Part shown: piece after piece, positions 3,427 to 30,937 of the stretch
How the letters are laid out: the number at the start of each line of letters is the position of its first letter
How positions within the stretch are numbered: the first letter of the stretch is position 1
Source of the DNA: Chthoniobacteraceae bacterium
GTDB lineage: Bacteria > Verrucomicrobiota > Verrucomicrobiia > Chthoniobacterales > Chthoniobacteraceae
Reading direction: 5' to 3'
DNA length: 38,864 bases
Assembly (NCBI GenBank): GCA_031409655.1
Contig: JANNXQ010000212.1
Coordinates: 1-38,864, forward strand
Position numbers and translations under genes: made by a program
The notes under the pieces: generated by a model
Told to the model about the DNA's origin: nothing
The model's input: only the letters and a program-made list of their open reading frames with translations
Databases searched by the model: none

Positions 3427-3470
3427 CGGGTCGATGGGTACGAGGCTTAGGCCAGAAGGCAGTGGCTCGG

Positions 3471-3656
<186 letters not shown>

Positions 3657-3675
3657 TCCCCACCGCCCCTCCGCT

Positions 3676-16540: not shown

Positions 16541-16661
16541 CGTTCTCGCCGCCAGGAAGGACGCTTCTCTAGTTGCCCGCCGGCTCATTTTCGGACACGC
16601 TTCCGCCGCCTTCTCCCTTTCGAACTTGAGTGAAGGCCGCTTGCTCCAACCGAGAACTTCC

Positions 16662-18737
16662 ATGGACCGTCCCTCCCCTCTACTTACCCACCGCTGGCTG
16701 CACCTTGTCCGCGCTGCACTTTGCACTCTTTGTTTCCACGGTATCACCAGCGAGGCAGTCGCTGCGACCGGAGTCGCGCGGGTGTGGAATGAGCAGCAAC
16801 TCTCCGCCATCCGCATCGACCGTCCGCATCCACCAGTACAGGCGCGCAACTTATTCAGCGTCTCCGCTGCGATGTACGACGCCTGGGCCGCCTACGACTC
16901 AACGGCCGTCGGTTTCATTTATCGGGGAAAACCGAGCGCCGCTGATGTCGCCGCAGCGCGCCGCGAGGCGATCAGCTATGCCGCGTATCGCACCCTGCGC
17001 GAGCGCTACGCCCTTTCGCTCAACGCCGCGACCACCCTCGCCGCTCTCGATGCACAGCTAACCAGCCTCGGCTACAGCACCGCCAATACTTCCACGAACC
17101 CGGCCACTCCGTCCGGTGTGGGGAACTCCGTCGCGGCCGCCGTCTCCGCCTGGTTCATCAATGACGGCGCGCGGCAACTGCAATCCTATGCGGATTATCC
17201 CGTGGGTTCGGGCGGCTATGTATCGGTGAATCCGCACATGGCTACTGGCTTGACCGGCACTAACGTCATCGACGTCAACCGTTGGCAACCGCTCGCCATC
17301 GCCAATGCCCTCGATCAAAACGGCAACCCGATCGGACCGCTCCAAACCTTTCAAGGTCCGCAATGGCTCGGCGTGCGCGCCTTTGCCCTCCCGCGCACCG
17401 ATTCCACCCGTCCATGGTTCGACCCCGGCCCTCCACCTTACCTCAATGGCGTGGGCGACGCACAGTTCCGCAGCGAAGTCGTCGAAGTCATTCGCCGGAG
17501 CAGCGAACTAACACCCGACGATGGCGTCGTCGTGAATTACTCACCCGGCGCCTTTGGCAACAACAGCCTCGGCGCGAATGATGGCGCTGGCCACACCGTG
17601 AATCCCATCACCAGCCTGCCCTACGCGGCGAATTCCATCAAACGCGGCGACTTCGCCCGCGTGCTTGCCGAGTATTGGGCCGACGGACCCAGCTCGGAGA
17701 CTCCGCCTGGCCATTGGAACGTCGTCGCCAACACCGTCAGCGATCACGCATCCTTTCTCAAGCGCCTCGGCGGCACCGGCCCCGTGCTCGACGATCTCGA
17801 GTGGGAGGTAAAACTCTACTTTGCCCTCAATGGCGCCGTCCACGATGCCGCGTGCGTAGCCTGGTCGCTCAAGCGCTACTACGATGGCTACCGTCCGATC
17901 ACCGCGATTCGTTACATGGGTCAGGTCGGCCAGTCCACGATTCCGGCCACCCCTTCCTATCATCCCGATGGCCTGCCTCTCGTCCCCGGCCTCATCGAAC
18001 TGGTAACTACGGCCACCGCCTCCGCTGGCCAGCGCCACGCCGGCTTACCCATTGGCGCCATCGCCATCCTTTCCTGGCCAGGCCAACCCACCGATCCCGT
18101 GACCCAGTACAGCGGAGTAAAGTGGATCCTCGCTGCCGCGTGGCAACCCTTTCAGAAAAAGAGCTTCGTGACACCCGGCTTTCCCGGCTTCGTCTCTGGC
18201 CACAGCACCTTTAGCCGCTCCGCCGCGGAAGTCATGACCGCGATCACCGGCTCCGCCTTTTTCCCCGGCGGCCTCGGCGTCCACAACGCCTCCGCCAATA
18301 CCACCCTTACCTTTGAGAAAGGCCCGAGCCAGACCATTCAATTGCAATGGGGCACTTACTACGATGCCGCCGATCAAGCCGGCCTCTCCCGCCTCTGGGG
18401 AGGCATCCATGTGCCGGTGGATGATGTCACCGGCCGCCGCGCCGGCTCCCTCTGCGGCAAAGGCGCGTGGTCGCTCGCCCGGCAATTCTTCGACGGTTCC
18501 ATCGTGCAGTCCCCCTTCGCCCTGACCATCCATGCACCAAACGCAACCCAACGCGAACTCCGCTGCGAGAGTGTGCGCGGCCTTTTTTACAAGCTCCAGA
18601 GCACGCTCGACCTCACCCAGCCCTTCGTCGATGACCCCGCCGGATTCGTGCAATGCCTCGACGCCCCCATCCTGCGCACCGACACCACCGCCGCCCCGAA
18701 GAAGTTCTATCGCTACGTTAGATCGCTCACGCCGTAA
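16662..18737 (+). CDS. Secreted vanadium-dependent haloperoxidase/PAP2-family protein with C-terminal 'FYR' domain
   Basis: 'KRYYDGYRP', 'PGFPGFVSGHSTFS', 'SRLWGGIH' vanadate-binding motifs; ends 'FYKLQSTLDL...D...KKFYRYVRSLTP'; start uncertain. Confidence 0.87.
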   Translation: MDRPSPLLTHRWLHLVRAALCTLCFHGITSEAVAATGVARVWNEQQLSAIRIDRPHPPVQARNLFSVSAAMYDAWAAYDSTAVGFIYRGKPSAADVAAARREAISYAAYRTLRERYALSLNAATTLAALDAQLTSLGYSTANTSTNPATPSGVGNSVAAAVSAWFINDGARQLQSYADYPVGSGGYVSVNPHMATGLTGTNVIDVNRWQPLAIANALDQNGNPIGPLQTFQGPQWLGVRAFALPRTDSTRPWFDPGPPPYLNGVGDAQFRSEVVEVIRRSSELTPDDGVVVNYSPGAFGNNSLGANDGAGHTVNPITSLPYAANSIKRGDFARVLAEYWADGPSSETPPGHWNVVANTVSDHASFLKRLGGTGPVLDDLEWEVKLYFALNGAVHDAACVAWSLKRYYDGYRPITAIRYMGQVGQSTIPATPSYHPDGLPLVPGLIELVTTATASAGQRHAGLPIGAIAILSWPGQPTDPVTQYSGVKWILAAAWQPFQKKSFVTPGFPGFVSGHSTFSRSAAEVMTAITGSAFFPGGLGVHNASANTTLTFEKGPSQTIQLQWGTYYDAADQAGLSRLWGGIHVPVDDVTGRRAGSLCGKGAWSLARQFFDGSIVQSPFALTIHAPNATQRELRCESVRGLFYKLQSTLDLTQPFVDDPAGFVQCLDAPILRTDTTAAPKKFYRYVRSLTP

Positions 18738-18739
18738 CG

Positions 18740-18899
18740 AAGGGGCGATTTCCAATCGCCCAACCCACCTCCGCGCCGAGCGCGCCAATCCCGGCAAAGC
18801 GGCGGTGATTTTGCGCTCATCGATACCCGCTCTACTTTCGATGGAAGTGCTCGCTCTCGCTCGGTTGGCTGATTGGGCGATGGCAAATCGCCCCTCCTT
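18740..18899. repeat. REP-like inverted doublet (GGCGATTT(G/C)CAATCGCC family)
   Basis: Left AAGGGGCGATTTCCAATCGCCCAA and right TTGGGCGATGGCAAATCGCCCCTCCTT are inverted copies; they lie between convergent ends. Confidence 0.8.
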
Positions 18900-18912
18900 G
18901 GGCTCGCTTCGC

Positions 18913-19109
18913 TCACGGGAGCTTGATCACGCGGTAGAAGTATCTCTCGAAGATGGCGGCTTCGGGGTCGCGGACATGCAGGACTCCGCCGGTGCCGGCA
19001 AGGTCTTCGAGCAGCACGGTCCAGATTTGCAGGTCGGCGCTGCCTTCCAGCCGATAGCGGGCTCCGGCCTCGGTCGGAAACTGGAATTCCGCGCCGCTCA
19101 CTCTTTGCG
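18913..19109 (-). pseudogene. Orphan C-terminal-domain copy A (no own start)
   Basis: Reads EFQFPTEAGARYRLEGSADLQIWTVLLEDLAGTGGVLHVRDPEAAIFERYFYRVIKLP*; homologous to the end of the giant gene at 20986-21171. Confidence 0.8.
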
Positions 19110-19117
19110 GCGGTGGT

Positions 19118-19465
19118 TCAGCGATGTGCGTTGAGAAATCGTTGTACCTCATCGTGCGTGCCCATCATGTGAAAGTAGAGGAGCGCGCGATAGGCGCTGA
19201 AGACCAGCCGCAAATGCAAACCATAACGGCATTCGTAAAGACCGCGCCCCAAGGCACGGATGCCGGTTCCTCTGTGCAGATGCGGGTGGCCAAAGCCAGC
19301 GCGAACATTTTCGATCAGTTCGCCAATCTCCTTCCGCTCATTCTTCGGCAGCGCTCGAAGTTCTTCGAGCAGATCGGGGTCGAGCTTAACCTCGAAGGGT
19401 GCTTTCGAGGTCTCCGGTGAAGGTGCGGGCTTTGCCGGTCGTGATCGCTTTTTTCGCTTTGGCAT
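19118..19465 (-). CDS. RelE/HigB-superfamily toxin (start uncertain)
   Basis: 'ELRALPKNERKEI...GIRALGRGLYECRYGLHLRLVF...GTHDEVQRFL'; overlaps the upstream antitoxin. Confidence 0.75.
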   Translation of the reverse strand: MPKRKKRSRPAKPAPSPETSKAPFEVKLDPDLLEELRALPKNERKEIGELIENVRAGFGHPHLHRGTGIRALGRGLYECRYGLHLRLVFSAYRALLYFHMMGTHDEVQRFLNAHR

Positions 19466-19664
19466 GAAGGTTTGCCGCGATGGTAGCCATCTCATCTCCT
19501 GTTATTCCGTACTCCATCCGCGCATAATCAGTCGCCGTGACTTCGACCGGACGCAACGCCACGATCCGGTCGCCGCACACGATTCCGATCTCCTGCCCAT
19601 CGAGTGCCTGCCGCAAGAGCGCAGGAAGCTTGGCTTGGGCTTGGGTGGGTGTGAGAGTATGCAT
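19386..19664 (-). CDS. Phd/YefM-like antitoxin
   Basis: 'MHTLTPTQAQAKLPALLRQALDGQEIGI....VALRPV' Phd-type N-terminus; directly upstream of the toxin. Confidence 0.78.
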   Translation of the reverse strand: MHTLTPTQAQAKLPALLRQALDGQEIGIVCGDRIVALRPVEVTATDYARMEYGITGDEMATIAANLHAKAKKAITTGKARTFTGDLESTLRG

Positions 19665-19739
19665 GGCATCCATCAAAGGCGGAAATGCGAGCAAAGCAAT
19701 CACGGCTTTCAGGGGAGGTCGCGGCAGCATGACAACATT

Positions 19740-19954
19740 GGTAGGGAAGGCTCGCCGAGCGTTCCCTGATTTTGTGGCGTGGGAAGGTGGAGGGGCGGTG
19801 CGGAGCTTGTGTGTTCGTCTCGCATCGCGCGATCGGGCAGTCGGAATTCCACCGCCCCGCCGCCGCTTTCTCGCCCGCCTCCCAGCCCCGATTCCCTTTC
19901 ACCACCCTCTCGGCTCACGCCAAGAGTGGAAACGCTCGGCGAGCCTTCCCTACC
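19740..19954. repeat. GTAG-type REP doublet (REPIN/MITE-like), copy 1
   Basis: 27-bp terminal inverted repeats GGTAGGGAAGGCTCGCCGAGCGTT(C/T)CC, each itself a hairpin; internal sequence related to copy 2. Confidence 0.88.
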
Positions 19955-20146
19955 GGTTTTGGATCACGCGGTAGAGGTAGCTCTCGAAGGTGGCGGCTTC
20001 GGGGTCGCGGACTTGGAGGACTCCGCCGGTGCCGGCGAGGTCTTCGAGCAGCACCGTCCAGGTTTGCAGGTCGGCGCTGCCTTCCAGCCGATAGCGGGCT
20101 CCGGCCTCGGTCGGAAACTGGAATTCCGCGCCGCTCGCTCTTTGCG
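19950..20146 (-). pseudogene. Orphan C-terminal-domain copy B
   Basis: 19962-20146 matches 18925-19109 with 9 mismatches in 185 bp (hand count); reads ...LQVRDPEAATFESYLYRVIQNR*, with the TAG supplied by the REP's GTAG. Confidence 0.85.
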
Positions 20147-20165
20147 CCAGCGACGAAACTAAGGC

Positions 20166-20420
20166 TCAGCGCTTAGCGACTTCGCTCTCCAGGCGCTCAA
20201 CGATCCAAACCTTGATCAAACTCTGCCGCGGAACACCGATTCGGCTCGCCTCAAAGTCCAGCGCATTCACGACCCACGTCGGGAACTCGACGCCGATGCT
20301 CTGCGGTTCGATTGCCGCCGGTACGGGTCGCGGATTAGAGAGGAAACCGGAAAGATCGGCGCCCGATTCGATGAGATCGTCCGTCAGGACCGGTTGCTCC
20401 TTACCTTTTGTTTTGCTCAT
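20166..20420 (-). CDS. brnA: BrnA/CopG-like antitoxin
   Basis: 'IESGADLS...IGVEFPTWVVNALDFEASRIGVPRQSLIKVWIVERL' ribbon-helix-helix; downstream of and overlapping brnT. Confidence 0.88.
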   Translation of the reverse strand: MSKTKGKEQPVLTDDLIESGADLSGFLSNPRPVPAAIEPQSIGVEFPTWVVNALDFEASRIGVPRQSLIKVWIVERLESEVAKR

Positions 20421-20673
20421 GGAATTCGATTTCTTTCGGGGTGGCTTTGCGGGCGCTGATCAGCCGAATCGCTGGTCCGGCGCGGTGCGTAAAGATGGCG
20501 ATGAATATCTCTCCTGCAAGCGGCGCGAGTCGCGCATAGCGGTATTCGCCGTTGACGATGCCCAAGTCAGCTTCGACGGCAGGAACGCTCCACATTCGTT
20601 GCGCAGCCTCGAAGCTTACACCGTGTTTTGCGATGTTGGTTTGGCTCTTGGCGGGATCGAACTCGAAATTCAC
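20401..20673 (-). CDS. brnT: BrnT family toxin
   Basis: 'FEFDPAKSQTNIAKHGVSFEAA...IFTHR...IRLISARKATPKE'; GTG start. Confidence 0.92.
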   Translation of the reverse strand: MNFEFDPAKSQTNIAKHGVSFEAAQRMWSVPAVEADLGIVNGEYRYARLAPLAGEIFIAIFTHRAGPAIRLISARKATPKEIEFHEQNKR

Positions 20674-20726
20674 GACGAGATTGGGGACGGCGAATGGCTC
20701 ACGGAAAAAGAACAATGGAATGGAAT

Positions 20727-20749
20727 GAGCGGCGATTTGCAATCGCCGA
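20727..20749. repeat. Single REP-like palindrome GGCGATTTGCAATCGCC
   Basis: Same palindrome family as 18740-18899 and 26010-26272. Confidence 0.75.
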
Positions 20750-20753
20750 ACGT

Positions 20754-20983
20754 GGTAGGGAAGACTCGCCGAACCGAGCGGAGCAAGATAACTTGCCAAA
20801 GGCAGCCCGAAGGGTGGGCGCGGAGGCGCCCAGCAACGTTCCCTGATCCTGCGGCATGGAAAAGTGGAGGGGCGGCGCGGAGCACGCCGGTACGATAAAT
20901 CGTTCGCGGAAGCGGGGACGAATTCCACCGCCCGCCGCTTTCACCCACGCCTTCGTGGGAACGCTCGGCGAGCCTTCCCTACC
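20754..20983. repeat. GTAG-type REP doublet, copy 2 (left arm interrupted by a 63-bp insert)
   Basis: Right arm is a perfect inverse of GGTAGGGAAGGCTCGCCGAGCGTTCCC; shares internal blocks GTGGAGGGGCGG.GCGGAGC and GAATTCCACCGCCC with copy 1. Confidence 0.88.
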
Positions 20984-20985
20984 TT

Positions 20986-23900
20986 TCATGGAAGTGTGAT
21001 GATGCGGTAGAAGTATTGGCGTGCGGTGTGGCGTTGGGGTCAGTCACTTGCCGGGGGGCCGCCGGTGCCTTCGATTTGGTCGAGGAGCACTTCCCACTGG
21101 CCGCTGGCGAGGTCGGGGGTGCCTTCGAGGCGGTAGTGGCGGCCGGCTTCGCTTTGGAATTGAAACTGCACACTGCCCGCCGCAGGCCCGGAGCTGGTCG
21201 CAGCGCTGCGCGTCAGGGCGCTCAGGCGCACCACGTTGTCCGCGCCGGGCGGGGTGGGGGCGGTGGGTGGATTGGGCGATGATCCGTTGCCACTCCCAAG
21301 CGCCGTCACGATGGCGGGGGACTTCGCGGGGGCAATCGGGGCGAGGGCGTCGGTTGGCAGGCCCCAGTCGTAGGTGCCGCCGATGGGCCCGACGATTTAA
21401 TCCACGCCCAGTTTCCCGTATTCGTTGAGGCCCCACGCCCAGAGGCTGCCGTCGGTTTGGCGCGCCACGGTGTGGTCGTAGGCGGCGGCGATTTCGGCCC
21501 AGCCGTTACCCGTGTCGATGCGCACCGGGCTGAGTTTCTCGCCTCCGGTGCCAACCCCCAATTGCCCGAAGTCATTGTTGCCCCACGCCCAGAGACTTCC
21601 GTCGGTCTTGCGCGCAACGGTGTGGTTGCTGCCCGCGGAAACCTCTGCCCAGTCGTTGCCCGTGCCAATGCGCACCGGGCTGAGCTTATCGTCAATGGTC
21701 CCATCGCCCAGCCGCCCGGACTCATTGTTGCCCCACGCCCAGAGGCTGCCATCTATCCTGCGCGCTACCGTGTGGGATTCGCCCGCCGCGGTCTCCGCCC
21801 AGTCGTTGCCCGTGCCGATGCGCACCGGGCTGAGCTTGCCGTCAGTGGTGCCATCTCCCAGTTGCCCGGAGAAATTGTTGCCCCACGCCCAGAGGCTGCC
21901 GTCGGTCTTGCGCGCAGCAGTGTGGCTTGTGCCCGCGGCGATCTCCCCCCAGTCGTTGCCTGCCCCGATGCGCACCGGGCTGAGCTTGCCGCCAGTCGTG
22001 CCATCTCCTAGTTGCCCAAAGCTATTGTCGCCCCAAGCCCAGAGACTGCCGTCGCTCTTGCGCGCCACGGTGTGGAATTCGCTGGCGGCGATCTCCACCC
22101 ATTCGTTACCCGTGCCGATGCGCACCGGGCTGAGTTCGGCGTCGGCATAAGCGCCATCGCCCAGTTCCCCGGAGCCCCAGGCCCAGAGGCTGCCGTCGGT
22201 CTTCAAGGCAAAGGTGTGAAAGTAGCCGGCGGCAATGGCCTTTGTAGTGGCACCAGATGCAAAGGGCGCGAGGGTCAGGATGCCTGCATCCACCAAGCCA
22301 CCAGGCACAGGGCTGAGACTCTTCGCCACCGCGACCAATCGCCCACCCCCTTCGATAAGCACCGCAGAAAGCGTCAAATTCCCCAGCGTCGTCGGCACAT
22401 TGGAAAAGCTGAAGCTGCCATCCGCCCCCACGACGGCGGACAGTTCCAGCCCCGCAATCGTGACCACCGCCCCGACGGCCGCAGAGCCATCCGGCCTGCG
22501 GAGAAAGCCGCCGACGGTGGTCAGCGAATCGCCTGGCACGGCGGTGATCCGAGCCACCGCAGTCGTGCCTTCGTTGACGGCGGTAATGTAGGCGATGCCG
22601 GGGCCGGTCGAGGTGACCCGTCCGTCGGCATCGACCGTGGCCACGCCGACGTTGCTAGTGCGATAGCTGGTCCAACTCGTGGCGGGAGTCACATCGCCGG
22701 TGGTCTGGTCCGCAAAGGTCGCGGTTACACGGGCCTGCGTGGCCTGGCCGAGCGCGCCCGTCAAAGTCGCCGCATCCGGCACCACCATCAGCATGTCCGG
22801 TTTCCGAGGCGGCATATCGGTGGAGGTTAGGTTTTCGATCGTGAAGGTGTTGCCCCTTCCAATTCGGAAGAACTCACTAAAGAAATATTGTGCTTTCCCA
22901 TCCACCGTTCTGACACCGATAAGACGAACAAAGTCGTCGCTGATGAAATCCGGGGGTGTTCCTGGTCCTCCAGCACCAAACTGGTCCGGCGCAGACACGT
23001 TAGCGAGATGGAAGCTACTCGAGCTAGCCGCTACCACAGCTTGCCCTCCTAAACTAATAGTCCATTCCGGGGAACCGTTCACATCAGCGAAGTCCTGTGG
23101 CACCGTTGCAATCTGACGAGCCGAAGGCTTCGGTTGGTATTTCAAGAAAAGTGCTGCGCGTTGCTCAGCATCGGCGTTGGTGTCAACGGCAGCTTGTTCG
23201 ACCTCTCGTGTCTTTTCGGCCTTGGCGTATGCTGCATTGAATGCAGCAACGGCGGCCGAACACGCTGTTTCAGTCGGGTAGCGCTTCCCGTCGATTTCCG
23301 CCGCCATGGCCGCCACTGTATCGTAAAAATTCCTGGCAACGGCGACATGTCTGTTCTCGTGGCCTGTTACAAACGCAATATCAGGAGCGTCCTTAATCCA
23401 ATCGGCGTACCACTTATCGTTCACTTCTCCACCGACTTTGGCGGCGGCAACTGTTTTCTTTTGGCCGGTGGCAGGATCACACTGGCAGGACGCCTCCTTA
23501 AACCAGAAGAATCTAGTTAGGCCGCAAAGGGACACCGGATTGAACACATGTTTTGGATAGATATCTATGTCCTTGAAGCTGCCAAACTCTTTCCCTACGA
23601 CACCGCTCGTTCCGTCAGCACATTTATCGCAATCACCGGTCACCGAGTACGGCGGGCAGTTGCAGCCCCAGCCCGAAACCCTCAGTCCCGCGCCGGGGTC
23701 GCTGAGGATGGTCGAGCCGTCATTGGTGACGTGGCCGCTGGCGAAGATTTCGAATTTCTCGGTGTCGTGATTGTAAGTGAGGAAGTAGGCGATGGCTCCG
23801 GCGGGCAGCCCGCTCATGTTGGGGTATTCGAGGGCGATCGGGGGATCGAAGGTGGCGCGGGCGGGTTGCAGGGTCCAGGCGAAGGGTGGGCTGGCGCCGT

Positions 23901-25996
23901 CGGGGATGGGCATCGGCACGGAGTCGGTGTGGACTTGGTTGAGGGAGACGATGGTGGTGTTGGTGGGAGTGACCAGGGTGCCGTCGGGCTTGCGCATGGA
24001 GTTGGCCTTGATGGTTATCTTCAGGCCGGCGATGCCTTCGCAGGTCAGGACCAGGTCGGTGGTGCCGTCGTAGAATTTCGTGTTATTCGGGTTGAGGCGC
24101 GGGAGCAGGACGGGGGTGGCCAGGGAGTTCTCGGCATTTGGGATGAGGGTGGGCGTGTAACTGAGGCCGGGAAACGAGTTGGGCTGGACGTAAACACCGC
24201 CGATGCTCGTGACGTTGAGGCCATTGACGGTGAAGTCCGCGACACCGCTCGGGATGCTCGCGACCGGGGGATCGAGCATGGCAGAGTCGAAACGAAAGCG
24301 GCCCTGCAGATCCCTGAGAGTCGTGAAGGTCTGCCCGCCGACGGTGAGGCTGCAGAAGGCGCCGCCGAGGGGCTGGCTGGTATTGTCGAGCACCAGGCCG
24401 GTGAAGGTGGTGGGTTTGGTTAGGTCGCGCACCACGCCGTAGGCTATGAAGGTGGCGGGTGAGCCGGTATTTCCGGTGAAGTTCGCCTCGATGGTGTTGT
24501 TGCCGGCGTCGGGGCCGAGGGTGAACTTAACCTCGGCGTGGCCGGTCGTGGAGGTGTTCACGGTCACTGAGTCGAGGCCGTTCACCTTGCCACCGCCCTC
24601 CGTGACGGTGAAGGTGACGTGGATGTTATTCGCGCCATTGCACGAGTCGCTGACCCAGGCGCGCAGGGACTCCGGGGCGGGGCCGCCGGCTTCGGCGCGC
24701 TGGTTGTTACCGGAGCCGATATTGATTTGCCGCGGGGGCGATGGGTTGGCTGAGGCGCAGAAGAAGGTGGTGCCGGCGATGTCCCGGCTGGTGACGCTCA
24801 CCCGGTTATTGCCGCAGCCGGCATCGCCGCCGAGGGTCCAGTAAGCGGCGGCGTAGCCATCGGCGTCAGTGGTGGCCTGGAGCAGGAGGCGACTTGGGTC
24901 GCCAAACTGCCCGGTGGCGGAGAGCCGGCCATCGCTGCGGGTGACATCGAAGGTGACGACTTTGCCGGGGAAGGCGGTGCCGTCGGGATTGGTGATGCGC
25001 ACGACGATGGGAGCGGCCAGCTTTTCGTGGACGCGCGCGGTCTGGCCGTCGCCGGAGATGAGGGTCATGCGCGGGCCGGTGATGGCCACGCGCGTGACGG
25101 TGATCTGCCTGTTCACCGAGTTGCCATTCACGTCCGTGGCCGTGGCAGTGATCGTGTTTGCCCCCCAAGGCCAGCGGCACGCCGCCGCGCTCGAAGGTGC
25201 CATTTTGCCCGATGCCGACGTTCACGTTCGCGACGAACGAGTTGGTAGTTGAGGGTTGAGAGTTGAGGGTTACAGACAGGCCCATGAAGCCGCTGAGCAT
25301 GTCGCCGACGCGGCCGGCGACGACGATCGCGTCATTGGTGAGCGTGGCGCCGTCCTGCGGGAAGTCGATGTAGAGCGAGGGCGCCTGGCCGTCCTGGATG
25401 AGGTCCGCCGGCACCGGCTCGCTGCGCCCGGCGGGTTTGAGCGCGGTGACGAAGAGCTTGTTGATCCGATTCAACTGCAAGGGGACCGCGATGCTGAAGG
25501 CACCGGTATCCGAGGCCGTGCCCGTGACGGTCGAAGTGCCGCCGACGATCTCGACCGTGACGCCCGCTTCGGCGGTGCCGGTGAGGGTGGCGCTCGTGGC
25601 CGGGGAAGGCGACGCCGGCGCGGCGACGGCGGGCGCCGTGGGCACCTTGGTGATGGTCCACTGCAAGACCGCGGGATCGAAGGGCACCGTGCGGTCGTGC
25701 GCGATGGTGATGGTGTCGGTGCTCGCGGTGCTGCCCTGCGCGGCGACATTGCCGATGGTGAGGGTGCCTTCGACGACGGTGGTGCGTGGCGAGGTACTTG
25801 TGCAGGTGGCGGTGACGCCCTTGGCGGTGGCCGTGCCGCTGTTGAGCACCGCGGCGCGCATCACGTACTCGAAGACGGTGCGGCTGATGCGGCGCTCGGA
25901 GAGCGTCTCGGGGGCGGTGACGGTGAGGGTCGGGCCTTGGGCAAAGGCCGGGACGGCCACGAGAAGGGCGAGGATGGCGAGGCGGCATGTTTTCAT
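20986..25996 (-). pseudogene. Giant secreted multidomain protein (Ig-like domains, HExxH segment, RCC1 repeats, 'FYR' C-terminal domain), disrupted
   Basis: Signal peptide MKTCRLAILALLVAVPAFA at 25996. +1 shift in the C6 run at 25161-66 joins ORFs 24866..26293 and 21397..25203. In-frame TAA at 21397-99 is followed by sense coding. Compensating indels near 21055 and 21020. Ends QYFYRIITLP*. Confidence 0.8.
21400..22240 (-). repeat. RCC1-like intragenic tandem repeats, 150-bp period
   Basis: CGCACCGGGCTGAG at 21521, 21671, 21821, 21971 and 22121; protein 'HTVARKTDGSLWAWGNN..GQLGDGT..KLSPVRIG'. Confidence 0.93.
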
Positions 25997-26009
25997 GGGC
26001 GGGGTGGAA

Positions 26010-26272
26010 TCAAGGAGCGGCGATTTGCAATCGCCGGGAGTGGGAGGAAATCCGGGGAGCACGCGCGTCTCGCGTGTTGGATTCGGCGTCCTCGCCGAAA
26101 CGGACTTCCGAGAGCGCACGAATTGGAGCAAGCGTTTCAACTGACTCGAACGCTTCAAGAAGTTCGTCGCGGCGGGACGCCGCGACCAACACGCGAGACG
26201 CCTATGCTCCCCGGATTCGTGCGAGCGCTGCGCGCTGCCTTGGGTCGGCGATTGCAAATCGCCGGTCCTTGA
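26010..26272. repeat. Nested REP-like inverted repeats (two families, one inside the other)
   Basis: Outer 27-bp IR TCAAGGA(G/C)CGGCGATTTGCAATCGCCG with 1 mismatch; inner 32-bp IR at 26049-80 and 26186-217 with 3 mismatches. Confidence 0.88.
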
Positions 26273-26306
26273 GTTTGCGCCTCGCGTTTTCATTCCACGG
26301 GAACGC

Positions 26307-26852
26307 TCACCGACCGGTGCGGCGTGGCCGACGGAGGGCGGCGAGTGCGGTGCCCGAGAGCATCAGGAGCGCCGTGGAGGGCTCGGGCACGGGCGCGGTC
26401 TTCCCCTGCGCAATCGGCGTGAAGCCCGAATCGTAGAGGAGGAACGGCTGCGCCCCCGGCACACCCGCGCCGAGCCAGACGGCGGTGACCTTGAACTCAT
26501 CCGTCAGCGAAGGTGGGGCGCGGAGGGCGAGGGCGTCGTACAGCCCATTCGAGGAGAGTGCGAGATCGGGCTGGAGAGTGAGCACGTTCCAGTCGGCATT
26601 CACGAGTGGCGGCGGGTTTTGGAGTTTGGTGAAGAGCGCGCGGTCGAAGGTGATGGTGACGCCTTCGCCCGCGCCAAAGGTGAAGTCGCTGACGCGATAC
26701 TTGTAGAGCCACAAATCCTCGCCCAACGTGGTGTCCGCCAAATCGGTGGGGGTGAAGGTGATCGTAGCGGCGCCTGCCACCGCCGGGAGAAGGAAGAGCG
26801 CCGCCAACGCAGCAATCCGCTGTCGTGAGTTGGTCGTCCGGGAGGGATTCAT
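26307..26852 (-). CDS. PEP-CTERM sorting domain protein
   Basis: Signal peptide; C-terminal 'VPEPSTALLMLSGTALAALRRPRR'. Confidence 0.93.
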   Translation of the reverse strand: MNPSRTTNSRQRIAALAALFLLPAVAGAATITFTPTDLADTTLGEDLWLYKYRVSDFTFGAGEGVTITFDRALFTKLQNPPPLVNADWNVLTLQPDLALSSNGLYDALALRAPPSLTDEFKVTAVWLGAGVPGAQPFLLYDSGFTPIAQGKTAPVPEPSTALLMLSGTALAALRRPRRTGR

Positions 26853-30812: not shown

Positions 30813-30832
30813 TCGTCGGGCTGGTCACGGCG

Positions 30833-30937
30833 CGACGTTCGATGTTCGATGTTCGGAGTTCGATGTTCGACGTTTTCCCTCACCACCAACCTTTCGCGAT
30901 TCCTCTCCCTCGGAGGAGGAACATCGAACATCGAACG
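30833..30937. repeat. Inverted heptamer repeat hairpin (GTTCGAT / ATCGAAC)
   Basis: About 6 x GTTCGA(T/C)-type units facing about 3 x GAACATC; same heptamer as 3471-3656 with the arms in opposite order. Confidence 0.85.

Follow-up and report, generated by a model that had tools for sequence, protein, structure and literature searches.

Insertion with long target duplication has been defined for restriction-modification (RM) genes (Furuta 2010, PMC2853133, in the sections consulted), and the available parts of Mruk and Kobayashi 2013 (PMC3874152) treat this route for RM genes only, the mobility of toxin-antitoxin (TA) pairs being tied there to known elements. Orphan arrays of type VI secretion systems (T6SS) are attributed to homology-facilitated illegitimate recombination together with homologous recombination in the corresponding excerpts of Kirchberger 2017 (PMC5361080). 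Compact islets that hold TA genes only, without mobile-element genes, are described in the excerpts of Belot 2026 (PMC13617665), which propose spread through homologous recombination at genes that flank them, report one pair flanked by a duplicated 24-bp palindrome, and still call the entry and movement of TA pairs without a nearby transposase or integrase poorly characterised. Here we analyse a stretch of 38,864 nucleotides from a Chthoniobacteraceae bacterium (the whole of contig JANNXQ010000212.1, assembly GCA_031409655.1, hereafter the window), in which TA pairs alternate with orphan 3' ends of a secreted-protein gene. An original prediction had proposed that unrelated TA pairs are captured serially at a gene 3' end, and this agrees with our results, the gene end being duplicated around each pair. 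Its statement that no described system has such a layout does not hold: insertion with long target duplication, as given in the consulted part of PMC2853133, is a described relative.

In each unit of the array, a compact TA pair is enclosed by two copies, in direct orientation, of the host sequence next to it; we call these copies arms. Array coordinates are window positions, and the array is read on the minus strand, on which all its genes lie; repetitive extragenic palindromic (REP) elements are given without strand. The resident gene (20986..26293; open reading frames (ORFs), Pfam Big_6 and RCC1) encodes a giant secreted protein with a signal-like N-terminus, Ig-like domains, RCC1 repeats and a C-terminal domain. 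The last of these (20986..21175), which falls into Verrucomicrobia clusters without a name in ESM Atlas, is the upstream arm. It is followed by a GTAG-tagged REP doublet (20754..20983), whose left arm spans 20983-20957 and whose right arm is degenerate, with another repeat inserted at 20836-20780, then by a GGAG-type REP hairpin (20727..20752), the toxin gene brnT (20401..20673), the antitoxin gene brnA (20166..20420) and orphan gene end B (19950..20160; homology to orphan A from 20146), the stop of which is supplied by the TAG of the next REP arm. A second, complete GTAG-tagged REP doublet (19740..19954), which folds at z -6.5, leads to a Phd-like antitoxin gene (19386..19664), a RelE/ParE-like toxin gene (19118..19396) and orphan gene end A (18913..19109), which begins 8 bp past the toxin stop; a GGAG-type REP doublet (18740..18900) lies between orphan A and a convergent gene. 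This is the order originally described, except that the GGAG-type hairpin ahead of brnT has to be added. The doublet predicted to occur twice indeed has 27-nt arms that are 96-100% alike in both places, but the spacers between them agree at only 72%, and in the first doublet the right arm has degenerated and is split by a repeat of another family.

The predicted periodicity of about 1 kb was confirmed, orphans A (19109-18925) and B (20146-19962) being 185 nt each, 95% identical and 1037 bp apart, with the resident end another 1036 bp further up; the period is the size of a TA pair plus arm. Both orphans are, as claimed, more diverged from the resident end, which is 67% identical to B over 198 nt. 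The DNA of A and B has no further copy in the 6.85 Mb assembly of the window's genome (G000), while the protein domain encoded has about 125 relatives at the ends of long proteins there. The giant gene does end at the stop at 20986 and serves as the resident end, but it is a pseudogene with three lesions, namely a frame change near 25200, a TAA at 21399-21397 and a frame change near 21050. The sequence CGCTGA, pointed out at the ends of both window pairs, is present at each, but among 26 tabulated units it ends these two only, and we rejected it as a junction motif.

Assignment of the first pair to BrnTA was correct, BrnT matching Pfam PF04365 at 5e-18 and BrnA matching NCBIfam NF047399 at 7e-17, both above cut-off. 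The second pair reaches no Pfam cut-off, and sequence searches of the PDB gave no convincing match. Its labels are leads only: RelE/ParE-like for the toxin, from alignment and from ESM Atlas clusters at 0.97, and Phd-like for the antitoxin, from alignment and from a homolog that matches PF02604 at E 2e-4, below cut-off. Calling the cargo type II TA follows from family labels and purifying selection, and toxin activity is predicted. The RelE-like toxin (19396-19495) has no clear start codon at the antitoxin stop, in the window and in locus L079 (L-numbers denote individual loci from genomes or metagenomes), and its homolog on contig C276 (C-numbers denote contigs) starts with TTG; the start may be non-canonical or lie far upstream within the antitoxin gene.

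The array is real and without sign of misassembly, a possibility that the original prediction had raised. In the contigs of four sequencing runs from one study, one of them possibly the source of the window, the three unique array segments are equally deep (13.6, 14.2 and 13.7 in run X1; 9.7, 7.9 and 10.3 in run X2), the whole array not being spanned by any single run-contig piece. The window is short of one base at 21027, compared with the contigs of three runs, and at 18886, compared with those of two. The former is a one-base slip of the window; the other giant-gene lesions are not contradicted by the run contigs. A joint 19867>20955 was considered as a unit-skipping form and rejected, as it bears letters of the REP copy on C59, and a joint 18900>20727 as well as all joints on contig C286 were rejected with sides shorter than 30 letters that fit other repeat copies.

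We then compared 1.5 kb of left flank with 1.5 kb of right flank at TA-like loci of G000 (n=50, from 29 seeds and Pfam PIN, an incomplete list), scoring direct repeats of at least 40 bp and using random loci as control. Flanking repeats are enriched at TA loci, with 16/50 TA-like loci against 10/400 random loci (Fisher 1e-10), and with 10/44 when the two seed arrays are removed (Fisher 3e-6). This test replaced a count of TA loci close to the C-terminal domain (9/49, random mean 1.3), which is partly circular because the TA seeds came from the arrays. The structure is independent of any one target gene, and an essential role of the secreted-protein domain is not supported: the same structure recurs on ends or starts of oxidase, integrase, helicase-associated, nuclease and PEP-CTERM genes. 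On C276, a second Phd/RelE-like pair lies behind a PNPOx gene and is itself followed by a shortened copy of the 3' part of that gene, with no REP; this locus and the array on C286 answer the question whether the unit structure exists elsewhere. Among 25 PNPOx loci, three have TA genes plus orphan, with two TA types, and the other 22 have neither; 22 of the 25 are single-copy. Sorted by eye, the repeats flanking other TA loci of G000 include an integrase 3' end with a promoter and a dead antitoxin start, the end of a helicase-associated gene, the 5' start of a nuclease gene, a cas leader, a small gene in three copies around two VapBC pairs, and one REP-only case; a PEP-CTERM gene is another duplicated target. 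A scan of G000 that started from repeats instead, its classes again sorted by eye, returned 55 pairs, mostly tandem paralogs or REP-like; in 15 units, the duplicated piece is a leader or the end or start of a gene, and 12 of these hold a TA pair.

Outside G000, the best-scoring 30 PIN loci per search were compared, and flanking repeats were found at 6/30 in the genus, 4/30 in other genera and 2/29 in other families (control: 7/176 random positions in the congener G002), with 5/12 of the repeat-flanked loci REP-like. By eye, G026 was seen to have a homolog of brnTA with copies of an unrelated gene's end on either side. Three side observations follow. At G000:C279:2900-4570, a VapBC pair and an ORF6N-like gene sit in an apparent cas operon with a leader copy before each; in two genomes, TA pairs have repeatedly targeted a small gene that has no match in Pfam (G000:C38 and C86; L090 in G003); and at G000:C19:9862-12109, very short ORFs that are related to each other and have basic N-termini are clustered in tandem and may be precursors of peptides.

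Stacking is likewise not confined to the window, and the pattern is real and general within this lineage. At DNA level, a search through 61 genomes found the resident end four times in G002, and a scan of genome contigs likewise returned the G002 locus only. There, a truncated RCC1 gene is followed by five cargo pairs (VapBC, antitoxin/PIN, a reversed RelE-like pair without Pfam match, Phd/PIN and HTH/HNH), parted by three orphans of the RCC1-gene end and two of another gene's end. Synteny of this array with the window was rejected, its resident being a truncated homolog in a different upstream neighbourhood. Of 10 loci from a scan of metagenomes, 7 have repeated arms; they amount to about 3-4 distinct arrays, given that L083-L086 are near-copies and L080 and L081 overlap. 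G150, a genome of another genus, has three arrays, one of them on a 3.9 kb contig where four TA pairs and four arms are present but not the REP of the window. The second array of G000, on C286, is built from a different subfamily of gene ends and has a different REP; its cargo is VapBC, DUF433/DUF5615, a PIN-like pair and HicAB. The genomes compared are kin, so locus counts are not independent. The variation by whole units that had been suggested as a check is present among relatives, whose arrays (G002, metagenome loci, G150) differ in cargo unit by unit, and so is an empty syntenic site. At G150:C692, a PEP-CTERM gene, an intact 1823-aa homolog of the giant gene, a spacer of about 430 bp with REP-like doublets and no TA, and a haloperoxidase gene follow each other; none of the other haloperoxidase-homolog loci outside G000, of which 9 were compared in all, shows the window's flanking layout. 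The shared flanks in the window are, upstream, a PEP-CTERM gene (26307..26852, minus strand) and, downstream, the convergent haloperoxidase-like gene (16626..18737, plus strand; Pfam DUF6851, PAP2 and VCPO; 74% aa identity to L272). The end of the gene at the empty site is 62-66% identical to the arms, in a comparison across genera.

Several observations on these arrays stand by themselves. The same secreted Ig-like gene follows or interrupts arrays in L002 (G000:C75:4600-6950), L081, L082 and L086, and the C75 unit has no resident gene left. C286:15403-19760 contains, inside the array, two orphan discoidin (F5/8) gene ends, each then followed by a mini arm. The lone orphan closest to A and B (81-85%; L258:4716-4868, G002:C30) lies behind restriction-type gene fragments and is followed by a GGAG REP doublet. 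At L079:610-1310, a Y1 transposase gene with its own inverted repeats is the cargo between two array arms. Mobility genes near units elsewhere are this Y1 gene, an insertion sequence beside C86 and the integrase that serves as target on C96.

An arm was found in 25 of the 26 tabulated units. Arms have a median length of 157 bp (60-452 bp) and a median identity of 87% to their partner (67-95%). The last TA stop lies a median of 30 bp from the arm, at most 50 bp in 13/25, distances that overshoot where the upstream arm is another allele or is cut by a contig end. Between the arms, TA pairs take up about 0.5-0.7 kb in either orientation and span at least eight type II families, and arrays hold 2-5 or more units. 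In a tree of 30 arm copies, in which 13/27 inner branches are weak, arms group mostly by host array and not by adjoining TA pair. The cargo, on the other hand, is shared, homologous TA pairs recurring across hosts at 65-90% identity; one VapBC joins the same arm start at a similar point in G002, L081 and G150, the rest of the arm being host-type.

Ratios of non-synonymous to synonymous differences per site (pN/pS), all based on small counts, are 0.39-0.76 in comparisons that include an orphan (0.66 for A against B, with one short orphan case of 1 synonymous and 8 non-synonymous changes) and 0.71 for two broken resident ends. TA genes and intact PNPOx copies give 0.25-0.36; against L079, the Phd-like antitoxin gives 0.29 and the RelE/ParE-like toxin 0.25. 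Rows were left out for reasons of frame, namely C276 and two C86 rows from the orphan set and two C86 rows and VapB from the TA set. Hence, the arms decay nearly neutrally, and the TA genes are under purifying selection.

To account for this pattern, we favour as probable a combination of several processes: target-duplicating insertion anchored by homology, homologous recombination that spreads and stacks the units, trimming, and addiction that favours TA pairs. A rare insertion would come first. Incoming DNA would be anchored through one arm, and its other end would be joined by illegitimate recombination a little further back in the same gene; alternatively, a circle might integrate through one crossover. 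Either way, the resident gene end would stay intact and a truncated copy would be left behind the TA pair. The arm-TA-arm segment could then enter any related arm by RecA-type homologous recombination, so that arrays would grow and resident ends be swapped or displaced. DprA, present in 5/5 genomes searched, is in line with this. Deletions would trim the donor flank down to the toxin stop and erode the orphan, and addiction would favour TA over other cargo, loop-out of a unit being expected to poison the cell. For the window, the Phd/RelE-like pair would fit an insertion between A and B. Since B differs too much from the resident end to have been copied from it, the brnTA pair and the present resident gene would fit an insertion anchored in REP or a replacement at a later time; brnTA and orphan B do sit between two REP copies. 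The REP doublet would be a passenger that was copied along with the arm, though it could itself serve as the homology at times. The secreted-protein domain is probably a frequent target because of its approximately 125 related ends per genome.

A bolder form of this proposal, which we advance tentatively and would call possible at best, is a recombinase-free 'homology integron': a shared TA pool would circulate in Chthoniobacterales as arm-TA-arm cassettes, with gene ends as portable attachment sites. If so, selection on the pairs would keep junctions tight and arms long, and the approximately 125 secreted-protein ends per genome would be standing landing pads at which cassettes stack and swap resident ends.

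Several results weigh against insertion and spread by homology. The run contigs contain no same-species empty allele, no deletion joint and no circle (excised circles had been named as a check), in a type of data that drops rare forms. Orphan B, at its 67% identity, is not a simple copy of the resident end, and in the arm tree one sister pair, the G002 resident with L084, follows its TA pair and not its host. Within G000, 34/50 TA-like loci have no flanking repeat, and 3/15 duplications of a gene end, start or leader carry non-TA genes. At the PNPOx gene, two further orphans have no TA seed match alongside. The signal is weak outside the genus, where 4/6 repeat-flanked PIN loci are REP-like, and brnTA in G012 and the Phd/RelE homologs in G008 show no gene-end duplication by eye. 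As regards addiction, the non-TA units, the array unit that bears a Y1 gene and the TA-less PNPOx orphans mean that it is not required to form or keep a unit. Addictive TA pairs, moreover, keep no long-term chromosomal neighbourhood according to the consulted part of Belot 2026 (PMC13617665), and so loose a linkage to neighbours over the long term speaks against strong effects of addiction.

The pattern could also have arisen without any cassette-like mobility, through decay of tandem paralog clusters in which complete genes, each with a TA pair behind it, lost their bodies by deletion, so that 3' ends were left beside retained TA pairs. The resident genes are indeed a pseudogene in G000 and truncated in G002, orphan lengths are mixed, some reaching 700 bp and some showing internal deletions, orphans of a second gene type occur within the same arrays, and B differs from the resident by a third. 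We nevertheless judge this unlikely: the same structure is found on small single-copy genes and on 5' starts as well as 3' ends, 22/25 PNPOx loci are single-copy, the arms begin within tens of bases of the TA stop, and homologous pairs are found with different host arms.

Break-repair at replication forks, by which staggered breaks on sister chromosomes would be joined through TA DNA, so that every unit is new and homologous recombination only deletes, appears rather improbable to us. Host-type arms and arbitrary targets are in its favour, and double-strand breakage has been suggested for RM long target duplications in the part of PMC2853133 consulted. The toxins, however, are not known DNA nucleases, HNH cargo excepted, and among five genomes searched Ku was found in two and not in G000, G150 or G012. 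The recurrence in G002, L081 and G150 of one VapBC pair with the same arm start and similar junctions points to the transfer of ready units.

REP and REPIN elements are tagged hairpins that form inverted doublets in intergenic space and are served by RAYT (REP-associated tyrosine) transposases. The repeats of the window, which we take to belong to the REP family, have the GTAG/GGAG-tagged hairpin form, and the original prediction saw in them a possible nicking site, at which a HUH transposase would move REP-TA-domain units. There are 13 Y1 matches in G000, and REP doublets follow several arms in G000, G002 and L079. Even so, we consider such capture very unlikely. The window's REP is missing from the G150 and L083-L086 arrays and from single-unit loci, and the junctions do not lie at the hairpin foot. 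Its 27-mer arm has 5 matches in G000 (22 matches in 6/151 family genomes), none of them at the 13 Y1 loci, so that the RAYT/HUH transposase flanked by this REP that had been suggested as a check was not found in these incomplete assemblies. At 10 solo REP loci, no domain and no detectable Y1 gene was present within 1.5 kb, at limited sensitivity. The REP thus looks like an independent repeat that landed once behind a gene end and was copied along with it. REP doublets or arms also occur inside ORFs, at L001:1540-1736 (C59, in a signal-peptide region) and in kinase-like genes of two other genomes (L295, L306).

TA pairs are common integron cassettes, and an integron integrase above cut-off does exist in G000 on contig C132, but integron cassettes without integrase (attC clusters), or an assembly artefact, are scarcely credible sources of units whose borders are truncated host genes instead of palindromic sites, which in several arrays have no hairpin between arm and TA, which are equally deep in the run contigs and whose layout recurs in independent assemblies. 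The original statement that no integrase is present thus holds for the window, where profile searches of its proteins found no integrase or other mobility gene in the array, but not for the genome, although the C132 integrase is at no array. A strict attC motif scan gave 0 in nine array regions and also 0 at C132, with no positive control. Small AT-rich genes and attC-like hairpins lie upstream of the integron integrase (G000:C132:1-2544).

Elsewhere in the window, an antitoxin-like gene and a PIN toxin gene lie at 1786-2395 between two intact secreted-protein genes; since both neighbours are intact, we rejected this TA as an orphan unit. The end of the gene downstream of it is 94% identical to one on contig C144. 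Inverted heptamer tandem repeats occur at 3468-3661 and 30815-30889, a family also present on C103 and C107. Nested REP doublets at 26011-26271 lie between the region downstream of the PEP-CTERM gene and the giant-gene start, and their high depth in run contigs marks them as a widespread repeat.

Integrons and attC clusters are ordered arrays of small cassettes rich in TA pairs. Unlike these, the cassettes described here are bordered by host-gene fragments, occur in both orientations and have promoter space of their own. The window's repeats resemble REP/REPIN in their tagged hairpins in inverted doublets, unlike which they have a low copy number, no cognate transposase found and are missing from many units. 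A likeness to Rhs and contact-dependent inhibition (CDI) orphan arrays had been noted earlier. It holds, with the T6SS arrays included, for growth at one locus, spread by homologous recombination and lack of an integrase (PMC5361080, in the excerpts consulted), but in those systems the conserved part lies 5' of a variable toxin tip within one gene and orphans are toxin or immunity remnants. Here, there is no variable C-terminal toxin tip with an immunity gene behind a conserved core: it is the conserved end of the gene that is orphaned, the intracellular TA operon that forms the cargo is separate from it, and any gene can serve as target. The model of Belot 2026 (PMC13617665), as presented in the excerpts available, starts from delivery by a transposon or integrase followed by exchange between two different flanks, and long gene-end duplications and stacked arrays, as seen here, are not reported in those excerpts. 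A literature search, to the scope of which most subscription papers and supplements did not belong, returned no description of TA arrays with gene-end duplication.

The arrays keep footprints of their history in arm length, junction position, empty and filled sites and in one pair found in several targets. They make the proposed cycle of insertion, stacking and release testable with simple constructs, and suggest a reason for the frequency of short C-terminal fragments in Verrucomicrobia assemblies as well as a way in which large secreted proteins exchange gene ends. If the likely entry by homologous recombination and the role of addiction are true, they also offer a testable route for TA spread in chromosomes. 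The closest relative remains insertion with long target duplication. It shares with our units a two-gene addiction module, the lack of a mobility gene and an empty site in relatives, as well as long, variable and direct flanking copies, of 24-423 bp in the RM cases and 60-452 bp here (PMC2853133, in the sections consulted). In the RM class, the whole addiction module likewise lies inside an insert, there of <20 kb and here of about 0.5-0.7 kb. Unlike in that class, the empty sites are here shown across genera only (G150:C692 and the 22/25 PNPOx loci), the arms are eroded gene ends or starts, type II TA pairs from at least eight families take the place of restriction-modification genes as cargo, and repeated insertion at one target gives rise to arrays. 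TA cargo and serial stacking are thus what is new with respect to RM long target duplication, a route that extends to TA pairs and can repeat to build arrays.

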